A stretch of DNA of 64,000 bases from Rhodocyclaceae bacterium UBA2250 (GTDB lineage Bacteria > Pseudomonadota > Gammaproteobacteria > Burkholderiales > Rhodocyclaceae). This document shows, piece after piece, positions 6,995-61,637 of the stretch. The notes beneath the pieces were generated by a model, which saw nothing but the letters and a program-made list of their open reading frames with translations, ran no database searches and was not told the origin of the DNA. Position 1 is the first letter of the stretch, and every line of letters starts with the position of its first letter. The stretch spans positions 13,583 to 77,582 of the forward strand of contig DDXW01000042.1 in the NCBI GenBank assembly GCA_002347285.1. Direction: 5' to 3'. The position numbers and the translations under genes were made by a program.

Positions 6995-7744
6995 TCAATG
7001 TTGGCCGCCGCCGAGGCCGAGATAGCTCTCAATCACCTTGGGATCGTCCTCGAGCTGAGCGGAAGCCCCTTCGAGCGCGACCTCGCCGGTCTCCAACACG
7101 TAGCCGTAATCGGAGATCTGCAGGGCGGCGCGCGCGTTCTGCTCGATCAGCAGGATCGCCACGCCGGTCTGGCGGAGGTCGCCGATGACGCGGAAGATCT
7201 CGCGCACGATCAGCGGGGCCAGGCCGAGGCTCGGTTCGTCGAGCATGAGAATCTTCGGCTGTGCCATCAGGGCGCGTCCGACCGCCAGCATCTGGCGCTC
7301 GCCGCCGGACAGGGTACCGGCCATCTGCCGCTCGCGCTCCTTGAGGCGCGGAAAGATCTCATAGACCTGCGCCAGCGTCTGGCGCTCGTCGCGAAAGCCG
7401 AGCCGGCGGCGCATGAAGGCGCCGAGCAGGAGGTTGTCCTCGACGCTCATCTCACCGAACAGCTCGCGCTTCTCGGGCACCAGCGTCATGCCACGCGCCA
7501 CCATCCGCTCGATGTCGATATGACGGCAGGTCTCGCCCTGATAGCGAATCTCGCCGCGGCTGAGCGGCAGCACGCCCATGATCGCCGAGAGCAGGGTCGT
7601 CTTGCCGGCGCCGTTCGGACCGATCACGGTGACGATCTCGCCCGGCCGCACCTTGAGGGAAACGTGGTGCAGCGCCTCGACCTTGCCGTAGGAAACGCAG
7701 AGGTCGCTCACCTCGAGGATGGGTTCGCGGTTCGATGCGCTCAT
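6995..7744 (-). CDS. livF: Branched-chain amino acid-type ABC transporter ATPase
   Basis: GPNGAGKTT, LSGGERQML, LDEPSLGLAP; start taken at ATG 7744. Confidence 0.9.
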   Translation of the reverse strand: MSASNREPILEVSDLCVSYGKVEALHHVSLKVRPGEIVTVIGPNGAGKTTLLSAIMGVLPLSRGEIRYQGETCRHIDIERMVARGMTLVPEKRELFGEMSVEDNLLLGAFMRRRLGFRDERQTLAQVYEIFPRLKERERQMAGTLSGGERQMLAVGRALMAQPKILMLDEPSLGLAPLIVREIFRVIGDLRQTGVAILLIEQNARAALQISDYGYVLETGEVALEGASAQLEDDPKVIESYLGLGGGQH

Positions 7745-7745
7745 C

Positions 7746-9539
7746 TCAATCGACTCCACCCAGATAAGCCTCGATCACCGCCGGGTCGCTCTGCACCTCG
7801 CGCGGCAGGCCGGCGGCGATCTTCTTGCCGAACTCCATCACGACGACGCGGTCGGCCAGATCCATGACGAACTCCATGTCGTGCTCCACCAGCAGGATGC
7901 CCATGCCACCGGCGCGCAGCTGCCTGAGCAGTTCCGCCAGCGACCGTTTTTCGAGGAAGCGCAGCCCGGCCGCCGGCTCGTCGAGCAGCAGCAGGCAGGG
8001 ATCGGCGGCGAGCGCCCGCGCGATCTCGACGATGCGCTGCTTGCCGAGCGGCAGGCTGCCGGCCGCATCGTGGAGATGCTCACCGAGGCCGACCCGCGCG
8101 CATTGGCGCGCCGCCTCCGCCAGCAGACGCCCCTCCTCCGCACGCTCGAGATGGAGCATCGCGGCCGGGACGCCATGCCGGCCGCGCAGGTGCGCGCCAA
8201 GCGCGACATTCTCCAGCACGCTCATGCCTGGCAGCAGGCGCACGTGCTGGAAGGTGCGGCTCATGCCCATGCGGGCAATGGCACGCGAACTGCGGCCATC
8301 GACGCGCTCGCCGAGAAAGCGGACTTCACCCGAAGTGGGCGGATCGACGCCGGTGATCAGGTTGAACAGCGTCGACTTGCCCGCCCCGTTGGGGCCAATC
8401 AGCGCCAGAATCTCGCCGCTCGCCACGCCGAGACTCATCCGGTCGTTCGCCACGAGACCGCCGAACTGCTTGACCGCATCCTTGACCTCCAGGAGAGGCG
8501 TCCCGGCCGGCGGCACCGCACGCGCCGGCAAGGGCTCCGCGGCAAACTCGGCGCTGGCGGGGCGGCGCGCGGACGCCGGGAACCAGCGCGTCAGCCAGGG
8601 CCACAGCCCCTCGCGCGCCCGATGCAGCATGAAGATCATCAGCAGTCCGAAGCCGATCACCTCGAAGTTGCCGGTGGCGCCGAACAGTTGCGGCAGCAGA
8701 TCCTGCAGCCATTGCTTGAGCACGGTGATCACCGCGGCGCCGAGCAGCGCGCCCCAGACGTGGGCGGCGCCGCCGATCACCGCCATGAACAGGTATTCGA
8801 TGCCGATGTGCAGGCCGAAGGGCGTCGGATTGACGAAGCGCTGGAGGTGGGCGTAAAGCCAGCCGGAAAGGCAGGCGAACAGGGCGGCGATCAGGAAGAT
8901 GACCATCTTGGCGCGGCCGGTGTCGATGCCCATCGCCTCGGCCATCAACGCACCGCCCTTGAGTGCGCGGATCGCGCGGCCGGCACGCGAGTCGAGCAGG
9001 TTGCTGGTCAGCCACACCGCGGCGAGCAGCACCACCCAGATCAGGTAGTAGAAATGGCGGCCGTCGCGCAACTCGAAACCGCCGAAGCGCAATGGCGGTA
9101 TGCCGCTGATGCCGGTATGGCCGCCGAGGAACTCGAGGTTGCCGAACAGGAAATACAGCGAGATGCCCCAGGCGATCGTGCCGAGCGGCAGATAGTGCCC
9201 CGACAGGCGCAAGGTGAGCAGGCCGAGCAACAGGGCGACCAGCGCGGTCAGCAGCAGCCCCGCGAGCAGGCCGCCCCAAGGGTTGGCCAGCGGCGCCAGC
9301 CAAGCCGGCAAGGCTGTCGCCGTGGTCAGCGCCGCGGTCGCATAGGCGCCCAGACCGACGAAAGCCGCCTGGCCGAAGGAGGTCAGCCCGCCGACGCCGG
9401 TCAGCAGCACCAGACCGAGCGCCACCAGCGCGTAGAGGCCGATGTAATTGAGCAGCGTGATGTAGAACTCGGGCAGGACGAGCGGACCAAGCGCCAGCAG
9501 CGCTAGGGCGACGCCGAGGATTAGGCGCTGGCGGCTCAC
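7746..9539 (-). CDS. Fused LivM-type permease / LivG-type ATPase
   Basis: N-terminal permease ([18 protein letters not shown]) and C-terminal [16 protein letters not shown]; GTG start 9539. Confidence 0.9.
8544..8566 (+). repeat. 23-bp dispersed motif, exact; in the LivM-LivG linker
   Basis: AAACTCGGCGCTGGCGGGGCGGC, antisense to the gene, read as R-P-A-S-A-E-F. Confidence 0.95.
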
Positions 9540-52825: not shown

Positions 52826-52862
52826 TGAGAACGATTCTTATATACACTAAGAACTATTCTCA
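52826..52862. promoter_or_regulatory. Two Fur-like boxes upstream of hemP-bfd-bfr
   Basis: TGAGAAC-G-ATTCTTA (52826-52840) and TAAGAAC-T-ATTCTCA (52848-52862), both resembling the 7-1-7 box at 55401. Confidence 0.65.
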
Positions 52863-55398: not shown

Positions 55399-55417
55399 TA
55401 TGAGAATGATTCTCATA
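55399..55417. promoter_or_regulatory. Fur box
   Basis: TATGAGAAT-G-ATTCTCATA, perfect 9-1-9 inverted repeat 41 bp upstream of the ATG at 55459. Confidence 0.85.
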
Positions 55418-55458
55418 TAATATAGCACTGCATTATCGTTTGCCACGTGGAGAAGTTC

Positions 55459-56160
55459 ATGAAGAAACAGATACAGCATTTCGCCCTGGTCGCCGCGCTG
55501 TCATGCCTGACCGCCCTCCCGGCGCATGCCGAGCCGCCGATGAACGTCGACGACGCCGGCACGCTCGGCAAGGGCGGCCTGAAGGTCGAGGGCGTCCTGG
55601 GCCGCGACGACAAGGAGCGCGGCGGCGAGCTGGTGTTCGGCTTCGCGCCGGTCGATGACGTCGAGATCGGCATTTCCGTCGCGCGCGCCACCGACCATGA
55701 TCCCGATCCTTCCTCCAAGCTGCGCGGCACCGGCATCGGCGTCAAGTGGGTGCCGATCCAGAACGAGTCCGGCTGGTCGCTCGGCGCCAGCTTCGGTTAC
55801 GGCCATACGCGGGTGAATGAGCGTTCGGCGCCGGACAAGTTCACCGAGAAGGAGTACGCCTTCTCCGGCCTTGCCACCTACCGTTTCGAGCCAGGCCAGG
55901 TCGTGCACCTGAACCTCGGCGCGACGCGGGTCAAGGCGCAGGGGGACAGCGATAGCGTCGGCACCTGGGGAGCGGGCTACGAGCATCCCCTCGCGGAAAA
56001 CCTCAAGCTGACGGCGGAAATCTTCGGCGAGGAACATGCCGGACCGGACAAGGCGATCGGCCTGCGCTACGAGATTTTCGAAGGCTTCAAGGTCTCCGGC
56101 GCGGTCGGACGCGGCAACGACCGCAGCTTCGGCCAGGTCGGCTTTTCCTGGGAATTCTGA
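55459..56160 (+). CDS. Putative outer-membrane beta-barrel protein
   Basis: Signal peptide (LPAHA|E), alternating amphipathic strands, C-terminal VGFSWEF beta-signal. Confidence 0.78.
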   Translation: MKKQIQHFALVAALSCLTALPAHAEPPMNVDDAGTLGKGGLKVEGVLGRDDKERGGELVFGFAPVDDVEIGISVARATDHDPDPSSKLRGTGIGVKWVPIQNESGWSLGASFGYGHTRVNERSAPDKFTEKEYAFSGLATYRFEPGQVVHLNLGATRVKAQGDSDSVGTWGAGYEHPLAENLKLTAEIFGEEHAGPDKAIGLRYEIFEGFKVSGAVGRGNDRSFGQVGFSWEF

Positions 56161-56183
56161 AAACTCGGCGCTGGCGGGGCGGC
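56161..56183 (+). repeat. 23-bp dispersed motif, exact; directly after the outer-membrane protein stop
   Basis: TGA|AAACTCGGCGCTGGCGGGGCGGC. Confidence 0.95.
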
Positions 56184-56205
56184 CCCGCATGAAAGGACGG
56201 ACATC

Positions 56206-56436
56206 ATGACGACACTCGGCGAACTCAAGGCGGGCGAAAGCGCCCGCGTTGCCGGATTCACGGTCGATGACGCAGGATATCGACAGCAACTGCTGGCGCT
56301 CGGGCTGACGCCGGGAGCGCGGGTCGACGTCGTGCGCTTCGCTCCGCTCGGCGACCCGATGCAAATCAGCGTGCGCGGCTCGGCCCTGTTTCTGCGCAAG
56401 GCCGACGCCAGCGTCATCCGCGTGGAGAAACTGTGA
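56206..56436 (+). CDS. feoA: Ferrous iron transport protein A
   Basis: LLALGLTPGA, APLGDPM, LFLRKADA. Confidence 0.95.
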   Translation: MTTLGELKAGESARVAGFTVDDAGYRQQLLALGLTPGARVDVVRFAPLGDPMQISVRGSALFLRKADASVIRVEKL

Positions 56437-58658
56437 TGGCGATCGACTACCGCATCGCCCTGGTCGGCAACCCGAACTGCGGCAAGACCACCCTGTTCAA
56501 CGCGCTCACCGGCGCCCGCCACCGCGTCGGCAACTGGCCGGGCGTCACCGTCGAAAAGAAAAGCGGCGAATACGGCCATGACGGCGCGACCATCGAGGTC
56601 GTCGACCTGCCGGGGACCTATTCGCTCGACGCGCATCAGGTCTCGCTCGACGAGCGCGTCGCCCACGACTACATCGCCGGCGGCGAGGCCGACCTGATCG
56701 TCAACATCATCGACGCCTCGAACCTGGAGCGCAATTTGTATCTGACCACGCAGCTGGCGGCGATGGACGTGCCGATGCTGGTGGCGCTCAACATGGTCGA
56801 TGTCGCCGCAGCGAAAGGTCAGCCGGTCGATGCCGCCGCGCTGGAACGGCAGATCGGCTGCCCGGTGGTGCCGATCGTCGCGGCGAAGGGCGTCGGCGTC
56901 GATGCGCTCAAGGCCGCCGCGCACGAGGCCGCCGCGCGCAAGCCCAAATGCGACCCCACCGCCGTCGTCCCGGCCACTGCCGCGCAGGACGACATCGCCG
57001 TGGCCACGGCCCGTTACGCCAACGCCAGCCGCATCGCCGGCGTCGCGCTGAAAAACGCCGCCCCCGCGGCGCATCCGCTCACCGAGCGCATCGACGGCCT
57101 GGTGCTGCACCGCTGGCTCGGCGTGCCGATCTTCCTGCTGCTGATGTATCTGATGTTCATGTTCACCATCAACTTCGGCGGCGCCTTCATCGACTTCTTC
57201 GACCAGGCGGCCGGCGCGCTGTTCGTCGATGGCTTCGGCGCACTGCTCGGCGGCCTCGGCGCGCCCGAATGGCTGTCCGTGCTGCTCGCCAAGGGTATCG
57301 GCGGCGGCATCCAGACGGTGGCCACCTTCATCCCGGTGATCGGCTTCCTCTACCTGTTCCTCTCGGTGCTCGAGGATTCCGGCTACATGGCGCGCGCCGC
57401 CTTCGTCATGGACCGCCTGATGCGCGCCATCGGCCTGCCCGGCAAGTCCTTCGTGCCGCTGGTGGTCGGCTTCGGCTGCAACGTGCCGGCCATCATGGCG
57501 ACGCGCACGCTGGAACGCCGCCGCGACCGCCTGATGACCATGGCCATGGCGCCGTTCATGTCCTGCGGCGCGCGCCTGCCCGTGTATGTGCTGTTCGCCG
57601 CCGCGTTCTTCCCGACCAACGCGCAGAATGTCGTCTTCGGTCTCTATCTGATCGGCATTCTGGCCGCCGTCGGCACCGGCCTGGTCCTCAAGCATTCGCT
57701 GCTCACCGGCAAGCCGACGCCCTATGTCATGGAACTGCCGCCCTACCATGTGCCGACCCTGCGCGGGGTCTTCATCCACAGCTGGGACCGCCTCAAAGGC
57801 TTCATCGTCGGGGCCGGCCGCATCATCGTGCCGATGGTGCTGGTGCTCAACTTCCTCAATGCGGTCGGCAGCGACGGCACCAGGTTCACGTTCGGCAACG
57901 AAGACAGCGACAAGTCGGTGCTGGCCGAAGTCGGCCGGGCAATCTCGCCGGCCTTCGCGCCGCTGGGCCTCAATGCAGAGAATTGGCCGGCCGCCGTCGG
58001 CATCTTTACCGGCATCCTGGCCAAGGAGGCAGTGGTCGGCACCCTCGACGCCACCTACTCGGCACTGGCGGAAAGCGATGCCGCGGCCGCTGGCGAGGAG
58101 CCCGGGGAAGAAAAGGCCTTCAGCCTCGGTGTCGCTCTTTCCGCCGCCTTTGCCACTATTCCGGAAAACCTCGTCGAAGCGCTCGGCAAGTGGGCCGACC
58201 CGGTCGGGCTCGGCGTCGGCGACCTCTCCGATCAGGAAGCCGTGGCTGCGGAGCAGGAGGTGTCGGCCGACACCTTCGGCGCGATGGCCGCCCGCTTCGA
58301 CGGTGCGGCCGGCGCCTTCGCCTACCTGCTGTTCATCCTGCTCTACACGCCCTGTACGGCGGCGCTGGCGGCGGTGTATCAGGAAAGCGGCATGCGCTGG
58401 ATGCTGTTCGTCGGCGGCTGGACGTTCGGTCTCGCCTACGGCATGGCCACCCTGTGGTATCAGATCGCCAACTTCGGACGCGATCCGCTGGCGGCCTCGA
58501 TCTGGGTCGGCCTCGTCGGCGCGAGCTTCGCCGCCGCCTTGATTGCCATGCGCCGCTATGGAGAACGTCATCGCGAGACCTTCATCCTCTTGAATCCGGC
58601 GACGGCGACGGCAGGCGGCTGCGGTAGCTGCAGCAAGTCGGCCGGCTGCGGGCGTTGA
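56436..58658 (+). CDS. feoB: Ferrous iron transport protein B
   Basis: GNPNCGKTT, GNWPGVTVE, DLPGTYSL, SGYMARAAF, GFGCNVPA, MSCGARLP; Cys-rich tail. Confidence 0.97.
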   Translation: MAIDYRIALVGNPNCGKTTLFNALTGARHRVGNWPGVTVEKKSGEYGHDGATIEVVDLPGTYSLDAHQVSLDERVAHDYIAGGEADLIVNIIDASNLERNLYLTTQLAAMDVPMLVALNMVDVAAAKGQPVDAAALERQIGCPVVPIVAAKGVGVDALKAAAHEAAARKPKCDPTAVVPATAAQDDIAVATARYANASRIAGVALKNAAPAAHPLTERIDGLVLHRWLGVPIFLLLMYLMFMFTINFGGAFIDFFDQAAGALFVDGFGALLGGLGAPEWLSVLLAKGIGGGIQTVATFIPVIGFLYLFLSVLEDSGYMARAAFVMDRLMRAIGLPGKSFVPLVVGFGCNVPAIMATRTLERRRDRLMTMAMAPFMSCGARLPVYVLFAAAFFPTNAQNVVFGLYLIGILAAVGTGLVLKHSLLTGKPTPYVMELPPYHVPTLRGVFIHSWDRLKGFIVGAGRIIVPMVLVLNFLNAVGSDGTRFTFGNEDSDKSVLAEVGRAISPAFAPLGLNAENWPAAVGIFTGILAKEAVVGTLDATYSALAESDAAAAGEEPGEEKAFSLGVALSAAFATIPENLVEALGKWADPVGLGVGDLSDQEAVAAEQEVSADTFGAMAARFDGAAGAFAYLLFILLYTPCTAALAAVYQESGMRWMLFVGGWTFGLAYGMATLWYQIANFGRDPLAASIWVGLVGASFAAALIAMRRYGERHRETFILLNPATATAGGCGSCSKSAGCGR

Positions 58659-58701
58659 AGCCGTGCCGCAGCAGATCGATACCCTGAAACAAGGAGCCAC
58701 G

Positions 58702-59004
58702 ATGAACGAACTGCAAGCGAACCTGGAACAGCCCCCGGCCCGCATGGTGGCCGGCGCTCTCGCCCACCTCTCCCGCCACATGGAAACCGGCTGCCAGCGT
58801 TCCGCCTATCTGGCGGCGATGCTGCTGGAGAAGGTGGCCAACGATGCGGAGGCCGATGACCATCTGCGTCGCCACGCGCGCGAACTGGTCGAGATTCTCG
58901 ACCGCGACGGCGAGCATGACAGCAGCACGTCGCACGAGGCCCTGCCGGAGCGTCGCGCCGGCGCGCAGGAAAGCGCGACCGAGATGCCGATGGGCGCCTT
59001 CTGA
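58702..59004 (+). CDS. Small hypothetical protein downstream of feoB
   Basis: AAGGAG SD then MNELQANL...HMETGCQRSAY...HARELVE; 100 aa. Confidence 0.7.
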   Translation: MNELQANLEQPPARMVAGALAHLSRHMETGCQRSAYLAAMLLEKVANDAEADDHLRRHARELVEILDRDGEHDSSTSHEALPERRAGAQESATEMPMGAF

Positions 59005-59027
59005 GCCGCCTCGCCGGCGCCGAGTTT
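59005..59027 (-). repeat. 23-bp dispersed motif, 1 mismatch; fills the gap between two convergent stops
   Basis: Minus strand AAACTCGGCGCCGGCGAGGCGGC. Confidence 0.92.
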
Positions 59028-59602
59028 TATGCGAGATCGGCGGCCAGCGAATCGCGCGTCGCCGATGCCAGGGTGGTCTCGGCCTGGTAGTTGGGGTGGT
59101 CGATGCCGACGCGGATCGCTGCGCCGTTCTTCACTGCCTGGCACATCCCGGGCGTCAGCTCGAAGCGCAGGAAGTGGACAGAAGCAGTCTTTTCCTCGGT
59201 CTCGCGGTCGAGATCCTCGTTGGCGATCGGCGTCACGCGCGCGAAATCGGCGACCTGCACCCAGACCGCCTTCTCGATGCCGAGCAGCCTCGCGAGCTGG
59301 ATCTTGCGCTCCGCCTCGTCGGGAAACTCGATCATGAAGGTCGCCTTCCAGTTGCTGCCGTCCGGGATCAGCGGGTTGTAGACGTCGAGCTCCTCCTGGA
59401 TCGCCTCGGGCTCGAACATGCGTTCGAGGCGCAGCATCTCCTGCACCTGGTACTGCATCGTCAGCTTGTCCTCGAAGTGCAGCGTGGCGTGCGGGCCGAC
59501 CGGCACGATGCGAATCTTCTTGTGGGCGATGACCTTGGCGCGAAACTCGGGGCGCACGCGGGCGTACTGTTCGAGGCTGAACAACTGGTCGTGGGTGAGC
59601 AT
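59027..59602 (-). CDS. DUF3501 family protein
   Basis: YARVRPEFR, FEDKLTMQYQVQEMLR, YNPLIPDG, KTASVHFLRF, GIDHPNY. Confidence 0.88.
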   Translation of the reverse strand: MLTHDQLFSLEQYARVRPEFRAKVIAHKKIRIVPVGPHATLHFEDKLTMQYQVQEMLRLERMFEPEAIQEELDVYNPLIPDGSNWKATFMIEFPDEAERKIQLARLLGIEKAVWVQVADFARVTPIANEDLDRETEEKTASVHFLRFELTPGMCQAVKNGAAIRVGIDHPNYQAETTLASATRDSLAADLA

Positions 59603-59605
59603 GGG

Positions 59606-60937
59606 TCAGACTCCGTAGGCTTTTCTCAGCAGGGTGATCGGGTGCGACGGCGCGCTGCCGTCGGCGCGCGCATGGCCGATGTGGTGGCCGGCCATCGCGC
59701 AGTCGGAACCGTAGTGGTCCGGGGCGTTCTGGTTGATGCGATTGACGACCGGCTTGACGATCTTCATCGCGTACTGGTGGTACTCGGTCTTGACGGCGTA
59801 GGTGCCGTCGTGTCCGGAGCAGCGCTCGATGATGTCGACCGTGGTGTCCGGCACGAGGGACAGGCATTCCTTCGTCTTCGGGCCGATGTTCTGCACGCGC
59901 TGATGGCAGGCGGCGTGGTACGACACCTTGCCGAGGCCGAGCTTGAAGTCGGTCTTCAGCTTGCCTTCCTTGTGGCGCAGCATCAGATATTCGAACGGGT
60001 CGTAGAAGGCGTTCTTCACCTTCTGCACGTCCGGGTCGTCGGGGAACATCAGCGGCAGCTCCTGCTTGAACATCAGCACGCAGGAAGGCACCAGCGCGGT
60101 GAGATCCCAGCCGTCATCGACCAGCTTGGCCAGCACCGGGATGTTGGCTTCCTTGGCGAGGCGCACCGACTGCAGGTCGCCCAACTCCAGCTTGGGCATG
60201 CCGCAGCATTGCTCCTTTTGCGCCAGGGTCACAGGAATATTGTTGTGTTCGAAGACGGCGACCAGGTCCTCGCCCGGGCCGGGTTCGTTGCGGTTCATGT
60301 AGCAGGTGGCGAACAGCGCGACCTTGCCGGTGGTCGGGCCGACCGCCTCGCCCGGCGTGGCCGGGTCGAGCACCTTGAGGCGGCTGCGCAGCGGCCTGCT
60401 GTCGAATTCGGGCAGCCAGGCCTCGCTGTGGATGCCGACCACGCCTTCGAGCACCTTGCGCACCGCACCGATGCGGTTCACCGCGTTCACCGTCGGCGCG
60501 ACGATCGGGATGCCGCAGAACTTGCCGACCAGGTCGGTGCTGGTCAGCACCTTGTCGCGCAGCCTGGTGTCGCCAGTGCGGAAATGTACGGCCTTGGCGC
60601 GCAGCATCAGGTGCGGGAAGTCGAGGTTCCACTCGTGCGGCGGCACGTAGGGACACTTCGTCATGTAGCAGAGGTCGCAGAGATAGCAGTGCTCGACGAC
60701 CTTCCAGTAGTCCTCCTTTTTGACGCCGTCAACTTCCATCGTTTCCGATTCATCGACGAGGTCGAACAGGGTCGGGAACGACTGGCACAGGCTGACGCAG
60801 CGACGGCAGCCGTGGCAGATGTCGAAGACGCGCTCCATCTCGTGGTACAGCGCCGCCTCGCTGTAGAACTCTGGGCTCTGCCAGTCGAGCGGGTGGCGGG
60901 TGGGGGCCTCGAGGTTGCCTTCTCTTGCTCCGGCCAT
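59606..60937 (-). CDS. Fe-S oxidoreductase (GlpC/HdrD-like) with CCG domains
   Basis: CHGCRRCVSLC, CYLCDLCYMTKCP, QCCGMP, RCSGHDG; ATG 60937. The longer ORF-track start is spurious. Confidence 0.88.
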   Translation of the reverse strand: MAGAREGNLEAPTRHPLDWQSPEFYSEAALYHEMERVFDICHGCRRCVSLCQSFPTLFDLVDESETMEVDGVKKEDYWKVVEHCYLCDLCYMTKCPYVPPHEWNLDFPHLMLRAKAVHFRTGDTRLRDKVLTSTDLVGKFCGIPIVAPTVNAVNRIGAVRKVLEGVVGIHSEAWLPEFDSRPLRSRLKVLDPATPGEAVGPTTGKVALFATCYMNRNEPGPGEDLVAVFEHNNIPVTLAQKEQCCGMPKLELGDLQSVRLAKEANIPVLAKLVDDGWDLTALVPSCVLMFKQELPLMFPDDPDVQKVKNAFYDPFEYLMLRHKEGKLKTDFKLGLGKVSYHAACHQRVQNIGPKTKECLSLVPDTTVDIIERCSGHDGTYAVKTEYHQYAMKIVKPVVNRINQNAPDHYGSDCAMAGHHIGHARADGSAPSHPITLLRKAYGV

Positions 60938-61032
60938 GACGGTTCCTCCTCTGCGCGGATCGTTGTGGGGATGTCGGGGTTGGAGGTGCGCCGCCCGGCG
61001 GCTGCATGGCCGCCGGTGTCGTGCGGTGAGGC

Positions 61033-61449
61033 TCAGCCCAGTTCGTTGAGGGCCTTCTGGTAGCGGTTGGCGTGCGAGCGCTCGGCCTTGGCCAGGGTCT
61101 CGAACCAGTCGGCGATCTCGTCGAAGCCCTCCGAGCGCGCATCCTTGGCCATGCCGGGATACATGTCGGTGTATTCGTGCGTCTCGCCGGCGACGGCGGT
61201 CGCCAGGTTGGCCTTGGTCGTGCCGAACGGCAGGCCGGTGGCGGGGTCGCCGCAGGCTTCGAGGTACTCGAGGTGACCGTGGGCGTGGCCGGTTTCGCCT
61301 TCCGCGGTGGAGCGGAACAGCGCGGCGACGTCCGCATAACCCTCGACGTCGGCCTTGTTCGCGAAATACAGGTAGCGGCGGTTGGCCTGGGACTCGCCCG
61401 CGAAGGCGTCTTTCAGGTGCTGCTCGGTCTTGCTGCCTTTGAGTTGCAT
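61033..61449 (-). CDS. rbr: Short rubrerythrin (no rubredoxin domain)
   Basis: [36 protein letters not shown]. Confidence 0.93.
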
Positions 61450-61544
61450 CGTCTTCTCCTCTTGGTGGGTGATGGAGCACAGAACGCACGCGCACGCGGA
61501 CGCTCTGACCGACCAATCCTAGAAGCCCGACACGGAGAAGGGAA

Positions 61545-61637
61545 ATTGTTTTTGCCAAACAAGGCAATAGACGACAGCTATCGAAGCCGCCCGCCCGACA
61601 ATTGCCAATTACTATCGATTGAATCGCAACAATCAAT
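61545..61637. promoter_or_regulatory. Two OxyR-like boxes between divergent rbr and ahpC
   Basis: ATTG-N7-CAAA-N7-ATAG-N7-CTAT (61545-61581) and ATTG-N7-CTAT-N7-ATCG-N7-CAAT (61601-61637). Confidence 0.65.

Follow-up and report, generated by a model that had tools for sequence, protein, structure and literature searches.

A small outer-membrane beta-barrel encoded ahead of feoAB in a Rhodocyclaceae genome: a candidate metal-entry pore of the Fur regulon

We analysed a 64,000-nucleotide stretch from Rhodocyclaceae bacterium UBA2250 (contig DDXW01000042.1, positions 13,583 to 77,582; hereafter the window), in which a gene for a small exported beta-barrel protein stands directly ahead of feoA and feoB and is followed, after feoB, by a fourth small gene. 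The passage of Fe2+ across the outer membrane is usually credited to general porins. An earlier interpretation made from the letters and open reading frames (the sequence-only reading) had proposed that the barrel is a dedicated, iron-regulated Fe2+ channel for Feo, with the last gene acting as a non-canonical FeoC substitute. Our analysis makes it plausible that the barrel is a metal-entry pore of the Fur regulon, and leads to a different view of the fourth gene.

Gene layout and operator

The unit is made up of the following features, given in window coordinates with protein lengths in amino acids (aa):

55399-55417, no strand assigned: Fur-type operator (predicted), a perfect 9-1-9 palindrome with its core TGAGAATGATTCTCA at 55401-55415
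55459-56160, forward strand: barrel gene, 233 aa; signal peptide at residues 1-24, predicted 12-stranded beta-barrel, C-terminal Phe
56206-56436, forward strand: feoA, 76 aa; PF04023, E 1.1e-21
56433-58658, forward strand: feoB, 741 aa; FeoB_N, Gate and FeoB_C domains; NF007105 at 765.7 bits
58702-59004, forward strand: open reading frame (ORF) of 100 aa; conserved three-helix protein with a disordered tail
59005-59030, no strand assigned: putative weak terminator-like stem followed by TTTTA, below the scan threshold, conserved with the same-genus locus L070

As the sequence-only reading had described, all four genes are co-oriented with gaps of no more than 45 nucleotides (nt): 45 nt separate the barrel gene from feoA, feoA and feoB overlap by 4 nt, and 43 nt lie between feoB and the 100-aa ORF. 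GGAG stands 6 nt 5' of the barrel ATG and AAGGAG 7 nt 5' of the ATG of the 100-aa ORF. A terminator scan of the four-gene unit returned nothing significant, its lone match (56129-56141) lying within the barrel coding region and falling below chance expectation, and a GC hairpin in the barrel-feoA spacer (56174-56188) has the stability of shuffled sequence (z 0.18). We infer that the four genes form one transcription unit, co-transcribed and repressed by Fur bound at the operator.

The palindrome itself is present exactly as first noticed, reading TATGAGAAT-G-ATTCTCATA inside an AT-rich spacer downstream of an nnrS-like gene, with the barrel ATG (55459) 41 nt downstream. Compared with the Fur dimer site TGATAATNATTATCA, its 7-1-7 core TGAGAATGATTCTCA differs only by two symmetrical changes, so that 12 of 14 positions agree, and the 64-kb window holds one core-type site within three mismatches, where chance would give 0.2. 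A TATAAT hexamer (55416-55421) adjoins the palindrome, so that the operator overlaps the likely promoter or -10 region. When the source assembly (2.75 Mb, 92.6% complete) was searched genome-wide with the local form TGAGAATNATTCTCA, allowing up to two mismatches, five sites were found and only the one before the barrel matched perfectly. Four of the five lie in iron-gene promoters and the remaining one within a coding region; two (window 52826 and 52848) precede hemP-bfd-bfr in a divergent promoter, and another (C68:11235) lies between divergent fbpB- and fbpC-like iron ATP-binding cassette (ABC) genes.

The motif recurs at 31 sites in 876 kb of related loci, nearly all of them 5' of hemP, an FbpA-type binding protein gene, katG, the barrel gene or exbB. 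Upstream of barrel homologues the classical E. coli Fur consensus is mostly absent, and the local variant TGAGAATNATTCTCA performs better. Fur is encoded in the source genome (PF01475, E 1e-46), together with a second Fur-family paralogue. Given a 7-1-7 repeat close to TGATAAT-N-ATTATCA, its promoter position, its recurrence at iron genes and the presence of a Fur gene, the palindrome has good in-silico support as a predicted operator to which Fur would bind.

The two boxes before hemP, TGAGAACGATTCTTA and TAAGAACTATTCTCA, are 22 nt apart (window 52826-52862) and lie between a minus-strand Rieske-cluster gene and hemP-bfd-bfr. The same double-box layout before hemP is also found in loci L012, L020, L021 and L066 of the survey described below.

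Fold and distribution of the barrel family

The signal peptide of the barrel protein is predicted to be cleaved between AHA and EPP, giving a mature protein of about 209 residues that ends in SWEF. Based on a 36-member alignment (mean identity 64%), AlphaFold2 produced a model with a predicted local distance difference test score (pLDDT) of 86.1, a predicted template modelling score of 0.77 and twelve strands as assigned by DSSP. The protein is thus confidently modelled as a 12-stranded outer-membrane beta-barrel without a TonB-receptor plug, and it is probably monomeric. This agrees with the sequence-only reading, which had predicted an exported barrel ending in Phe and had argued against a TonB-dependent receptor: there are 12 strands in 233 aa, not 22, and neither plug nor TonB_dep_Rec matches.

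Library scans placed the protein in no established porin family. The Pfam matches were borderline or below threshold (Porin_4, Autotransporter, OMP_b-brl) and there was no NCBIfam match. The autotransporter beta-domain PF03797 scores 25.8 bits against a cut-off of 26, and the mature protein has only about 16 residues before strand 1 and no passenger. The OprB porin family (PF04966) was unmatched even at E<=1, and an OprB-type porin is much larger, with 487 aa in one example. The precomputed annotation of an identical protein (P0001) and of all 120 listed homologues carries PF27733.1; a literature search for PF27733 returned nothing. The barrel family is small: of 1.84 billion cluster representatives searched exhaustively, just 244 reached E 0.001 and 27 reached E 1e-30. 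A large protein collection contained 375 homologues.

Foldseek retrieved only generic 12- to 16-strand barrels for the model. Fold comparison with VIA-align against 48,161 chains gave the following matches:

KdgM (4pr7): VIA Z 21.1, root-mean-square deviation 1.8 over 168 residues
BrkA beta domain: VIA Z 20.4
COG4313 channel Pput2725 (4rl8): VIA Z 20.1, 207 residues aligned, starting at residue 23
NalP: VIA Z 19.8
AIDA-I: VIA Z 19.8
FapF: VIA Z 19.5
NanC: VIA Z 18.2
LpxR: VIA Z 16.7
PcoB: VIA Z 12.9
OMPLA: VIA Z 12.4

A profile of the barrel family had zero matches among all PDB sequences even at E 10, and the likeness to KdgM, the autotransporter barrels and the COG4313 channel is one of fold only.

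Within the 36-member alignment, the segment that follows the signal peptide (A-E-x-P-M-x-x-D-D-A-G-T-L-x-x-G-G-x-K-x-E) and the terminal W-E-F are invariant. Part of this N-terminal segment is modelled as coil with high confidence (residues 31-40, pLDDT 93). We assigned the lumen-facing residues from the hydrophobic alternation of the modelled strands (strand parity); by this rough estimate 17 acidic and 9 basic residues face the lumen, and 11 conserved acidic residues as well as H150 and N152 are predicted to point inward.

The presence of the 12-strand enzymes LpxR and OMPLA among the fold matches, together with invariant His, Asn and Ser residues, might suggest that the barrel has a catalytic role in the outer membrane, with lipid A or phospholipid as its substrate, or else a purely structural one. 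However, the predicted orientation of H150 and N152 is towards the lumen and away from the lipid, the LpxR and OMPLA families are unmatched by sequence, and the synteny is with metal transporters. We hold this explanation to be highly improbable.

A more serious challenge comes from the COG4313 channel, and the main rival to a metal pore is derived from it, because this structurally similar channel conducts ions poorly. According to this rival the barrel would be made under iron starvation for a substrate other than free Fe2+, such as a small hydrophobic or amphipathic molecule or a small iron chelate, and its adjacency to feoAB would reflect shared Fur regulation in an iron island and not a transport path. 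Both the fold and the N-terminal insert resemble COG4313. Sequence homology to COG4313/PF13557 is nevertheless absent: hmmscan gave no match, the family model was unmatched in the source genome, and hhalign against 11 PF13557 members taken from the bacterial family of the source genome gave a probability of 14.5%. The predicted lumen is also acidic and polar, not hydrophobic.

To place the barrel among its relatives, we surveyed loci from one genome per species, which gave 68 loci. Most belong to Rhodocyclaceae, Sterolibacteriaceae, Azonexaceae and Zoogloeaceae, with some from Thiobacillus and Comamonadaceae. In 21 of these 68 species-level loci, in addition to the window, tblastn placed feoA and feoB immediately after the barrel gene. 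One type of partner operon has a single FeoA as in the window and a FeoB 76-83% identical to that of the window; a second is feoA-feoA-feoB-feoC, with a FeoB about 65-78% identical and a genuine FeoC (PF09012, E 1.8e-20). Further partner types are more divergent (FeoB 55% in L041, 37% in L014), and in the Syntrophorhabdus locus L067 a 28%-identical barrel is encoded downstream of feoA-feoB.

A maximum-likelihood tree of 62 full-length barrels split into two clades at 100/100 support. Clade A (18 sequences, from Aromatoleum, Thauera, Azoarcus and Variovorax) has no feo-linked member, its neighbours being sensor kinases, response regulators and GGDEF-EAL proteins. Clade B (44 sequences) contains all of the feo-linked copies, which make up 22 of the 44 with the window included; two that a crude ORF caller had mislabelled were counted as feo-linked by tblastn. 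The pairing picked out in the window therefore recurs, and does so with divergent feo operons.

Other metal-related genes stand beside clade B barrels. The barrel gene lies 24 nt from CbiM/PDGLE-CbiQ-CbiO in L006 and L010, and a CDF exporter gene adjoins it in L022 and L034, where relatives have feoAB-CDF. A gene for an FbpA-type binding protein is found directly 5' of it in five loci (L017, L033, L063, L100, L102), while katG is divergent from it, with Fur boxes between, in three (L025, L032, L101). Other neighbours of this clade are hemP or tonB-exbB-exbD directly upstream, and gltX. In L101 (G432:C55, about 7169-7977) the barrel gene is followed immediately by a 40-residue FeoC-like remnant without feoAB, with katG divergent; this remnant suggests that the unit was once barrel-feoAB-feoC and has since lost feoAB.

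These neighbourhoods also bear on the reading in which the barrel carries another substrate. It is favoured by the family members found in genomes without a FeoB match or beside katG, gltX, sensor kinases and other genes, and by the mosaic, rearranged character of the iron islands here. Against it, the tight and recurrent partners of the barrel are all genes for metal-ion transport (feoAB, CbiM-CbiQ-CbiO, the FbpA-type binding protein and the CDF exporter). Taken together, we judge it unlikely, although it carries real weight.

Several of these loci deserve a brief description of their own. In L010 (7977-11345) and L006 (from 553) the barrel gene heads a Ni/Co ECF-type CbiM/PDGLE-CbiQ-CbiO operon; no clear shared operator was seen upstream of these two cbiM-linked loci, and a riboswitch search upstream of the barrel-cbiM, barrel-CDF and fbpA-barrel loci returned zero matches. 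The same-genus locus L100 (G025) has the FbpA-type gene and the barrel without feo, and L102 (G174) has them with hemP and feoA-feoA-feoB. The ABC permease and ATPase for the FbpA-type protein are encoded elsewhere, in the source genome at the Fur-boxed site C68:11235. A second, divergent FeoB of the source genome (34-43% identity; G000:C70:6310-8076) is encoded on a different contig and has no barrel match nearby. Converging on the feo unit of the window from the minus strand (59027-61636) are a DUF3501 gene (E 3e-74), a large Fe-S/heterodisulfide-reductase-like gene and a rubrerythrin gene, and the same DUF3501 gene is found near the barrel-feo unit in L027 and L104.

The invariant N-terminal segment and the TonB neighbours raise the further idea of a plugged, gated 12-strand metal channel, in which PMxxDDAGTL would gate Fe2+ and other divalents or act as their selectivity filter, perhaps operated by TonB-ExbBD in some lineages; we regard this as quite improbable. 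A related reading, in which an energised partner such as the TonB-ExbB-ExbD system encoded upstream in Dechloromonas/Azonexus-type loci would move the segment as a plug, is in our estimate very improbable. It would account for the invariance and confident modelling of PMxxDDAGTLxxGG and for tonB-exbB-exbD lying immediately 5' of the barrel gene on the same strand in six loci (L005, L009, L011, L015, L018, L019), but no TonB box is recognisable in the barrel, tonB/exbBD do not stand beside the operon in the window, and TonB clusters are common in iron islands anyway. Moreover, we know of no 12-strand TonB-dependent channel. If a gated channel with such a filter exists, it would differ from general porins as well as from 22-strand TonB receptors, being a minimal outer-membrane gate for metals that is either energised or regulated.

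At the level of the family, the barrel is present in 44 of 301 genomes of the same GTDB family (one per species). Its distant homologues in other families of the order (24-34% identity) adjoin neither feo nor any of the other iron genes queried. The barrel-feo association is real and repeated, limited to part of the family, and not obligatory.

The small protein encoded after feoB

The sequence-only reading had taken the last gene of the unit for a non-canonical substitute for FeoC, and here our results point elsewhere. The 100-aa protein resembles FeoC (PF09012) in being small and encoded directly after feoB; however, FeoC is a winged-helix protein, whereas AlphaFold2 models the 100-aa protein as a three-helix bundle (pLDDT >90 over residues 11-70, with a disordered tail), and PF09012 is unmatched. 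We found 281 homologues of about 100 aa, whose core is 60-90% identical and in which H22, H26, C31, H54 and H58 are invariant, a His/His/Cys/His/His signature. The His pairs are spaced one helical turn apart on helices 1 and 3 of the model, which suggests a metal site. Pfam and NCBIfam gave no matches, a fold search of the PDB gave nothing significant, and the protein atlas held unnamed clusters only.

The family occurs in 30 of the 301 family genomes, and together with the barrel only in the source genome and G520. Among 19 fetched loci of its relatives the gene is never downstream of feoB. It is found after an FtrA(P19)-OprB porin-cupredoxin-polyferredoxin ferrous-iron operon, before a DUF2325 gene (a gene that a search of the source genome did not find), or on either side of tonB-exbB-exbD-TonB receptor clusters, frequently with a Fur-like box of its own. 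From these Ftr, TonB and DUF2325 clusters we conclude that the 100-aa protein is a small protein of iron islands and not a FeoC substitute; the feo operons of relatives carry true FeoC. It represents a second unstudied component of Fur-regulated iron islands.

Comparison with the same-genus locus L070 indicates how the gene came to follow feoB. Homology between the two begins exactly at the ribosome-binding site of the 100-aa ORF and extends through the terminator-like sequence; upstream of this point the two differ, the window having the end of feoB and L070 an AT-rich promoter that contains a Fur-like box. From this break in the sequence homology we conclude that the 100-aa gene was joined to feoB by rearrangement in the source lineage. 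Such an event could be taken to mean that the barrel-feo adjacency is likewise a recent rearrangement accident of the source strain, without functional meaning. The synteny survey largely refutes this, as the barrel-feoA-feoB order is found in 21 other species-level loci from several genera and with divergent FeoBs, and we consider an accident hardly tenable.

In L071 (2340-7731), and also in L072, L079 and L080, the 100-aa family protein is encoded at the end of a Fur-boxed series for FtrA/P19 (PF10634), an OprB-family porin, a cupredoxin and a polyferredoxin. This Ftr operon is a further case of an outer-membrane barrel within an Fe2+ uptake operon.

Proposed role and comparison with known systems

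On iron starvation the barrel would be produced together with FeoA and FeoB, and would form a narrow, cation-favouring pore, with an acidic predicted lumen and the invariant acidic N-terminal segment lodged inside. It would raise the permeability of the outer membrane to unchelated iron, chiefly Fe2+ and possibly other divalent metals, and FeoAB would then carry Fe2+ over the inner membrane. More generally, the family may provide metal entry within Fur and metal regulons; feo operons have recruited it repeatedly, and it would not be an obligate Feo subunit. The fourth gene would be a small His/Cys protein of iron-uptake islands that lost its own Fur-box promoter on becoming joined to the 3' end of feoB. 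We infer the channel activity and ion specificity of the barrel, and we give about even chances to the view that it acts as a cation-favouring outer-membrane pore under Fur repression, supplying FeoAB with unchelated iron, within a family that has a wider use in metal entry.

A number of observations weigh against such a pore. The nearest 12-strand structure with a plug, the COG4313 channel Pput2725, lets almost no ions through at low voltage and has been proposed to carry hydrophobic molecules (PMC4493636). The lumen charge is a strand-parity estimate and not derived from coordinates, with three strands ambiguous. In many feo-linked loci no recognisable box lies within 300 nt of the barrel gene, and feo linkage within clade B is patchy, the well-supported branches requiring at least seven gains or losses. 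We also searched for FeoB in 45 barrel-bearing genomes (the 44 from the family-level sample and G238 from an order-level sample): feoB is adjacent to the barrel gene in five and 5 kb distant in one more, and FeoB is unmatched at E 1e-20 in 18, of which 11 are at least 90% complete.

The barrel genomes without a FeoB match and the other metal-gene neighbours, such as CbiMQO and the FbpA-type binding protein, therefore make "dedicated to Feo" too narrow a description. What stands of the original proposal is an iron-regulated candidate channel with a credible Fur box and a recurrent linkage to feoAB. At about 209 residues the barrel is a compact target for electrophysiology and structural work, with cultivable hosts such as Azonexus caeni and Sulfuricystis multivorans.

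To our knowledge, dedicated candidates for the outer-membrane step such as the porin FeoP have been predicted for twenty years and have never been shown to transport iron. FeoP is the OprB-family porin encoded by feoPABC of Acidithiobacillus ferrooxidans (PMC1874648), and in Geobacter sulfurreducens a Fur-boxed OprB-family porin gene precedes feoA-feoA-feoB2 (PMC545781). The window has the same arrangement, with a Fur-type operator over the promoter, the barrel gene first and feoA and feoB directly downstream on the same strand in one unit, and as with FeoP the barrel is proposed as the outer-membrane entry step for Fe2+. However, FeoP is a large OprB-type porin (PF04966), whereas the barrel described here is 12-stranded, is far shorter as a mature protein and does not match PF04966. 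Because the two belong to different families, the arrangement is convergent. The E. coli Feo route, for its part, crosses the outer membrane through OmpC/OmpF (PMC7315122).

Like our model, the COG4313 channel Pput2725 (PDB 4RL8) has 12 strands and, ahead of them, a short N-terminal segment. The N-terminal 14 or so residues of Pput2725 fold into the barrel lumen (PMC4493636), an architecture that the invariant segment of the modelled barrel fits. There is no detectable sequence relation between the two, and the hydrophobic substrates to which COG4313 has been linked contrast with the acidic predicted lumen and metal-transport neighbours seen here. KdgM and NanC (4PR7, 2WJR) include the best fold match and are small monomeric uptake channels, but their lumen is open and without an N-terminal insert, they carry acidic sugars, and their sequences are unmatched. 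As cited in PMC6011978 (Hohle et al. 2011), MnoP of Bradyrhizobium japonicum is an experimentally supported outer-membrane channel for Mn2+. MnoP resembles our proposal in being a metalloregulated outer-membrane channel that serves a specific inner-membrane importer of a divalent metal; it differs in protein family, in working with Mn2+ and MntH, and in having experimental support, where the present barrel is known from sequence and model.

A porin at the head of a Fur-controlled feo operon is thus a published concept, in print since 2004 and 2007 (PMC545781, PMC1874648), and is not new. What is new is the barrel family itself, which is small, 12-stranded, equipped with an N-terminal insert and unrelated in sequence to OprB porins, KdgM and COG4313. 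That feo operons of divergent types, and other metal importers too, have repeatedly recruited an unrelated and much smaller barrel family strengthens the case for metalloregulated outer-membrane entry pores in bacteria.

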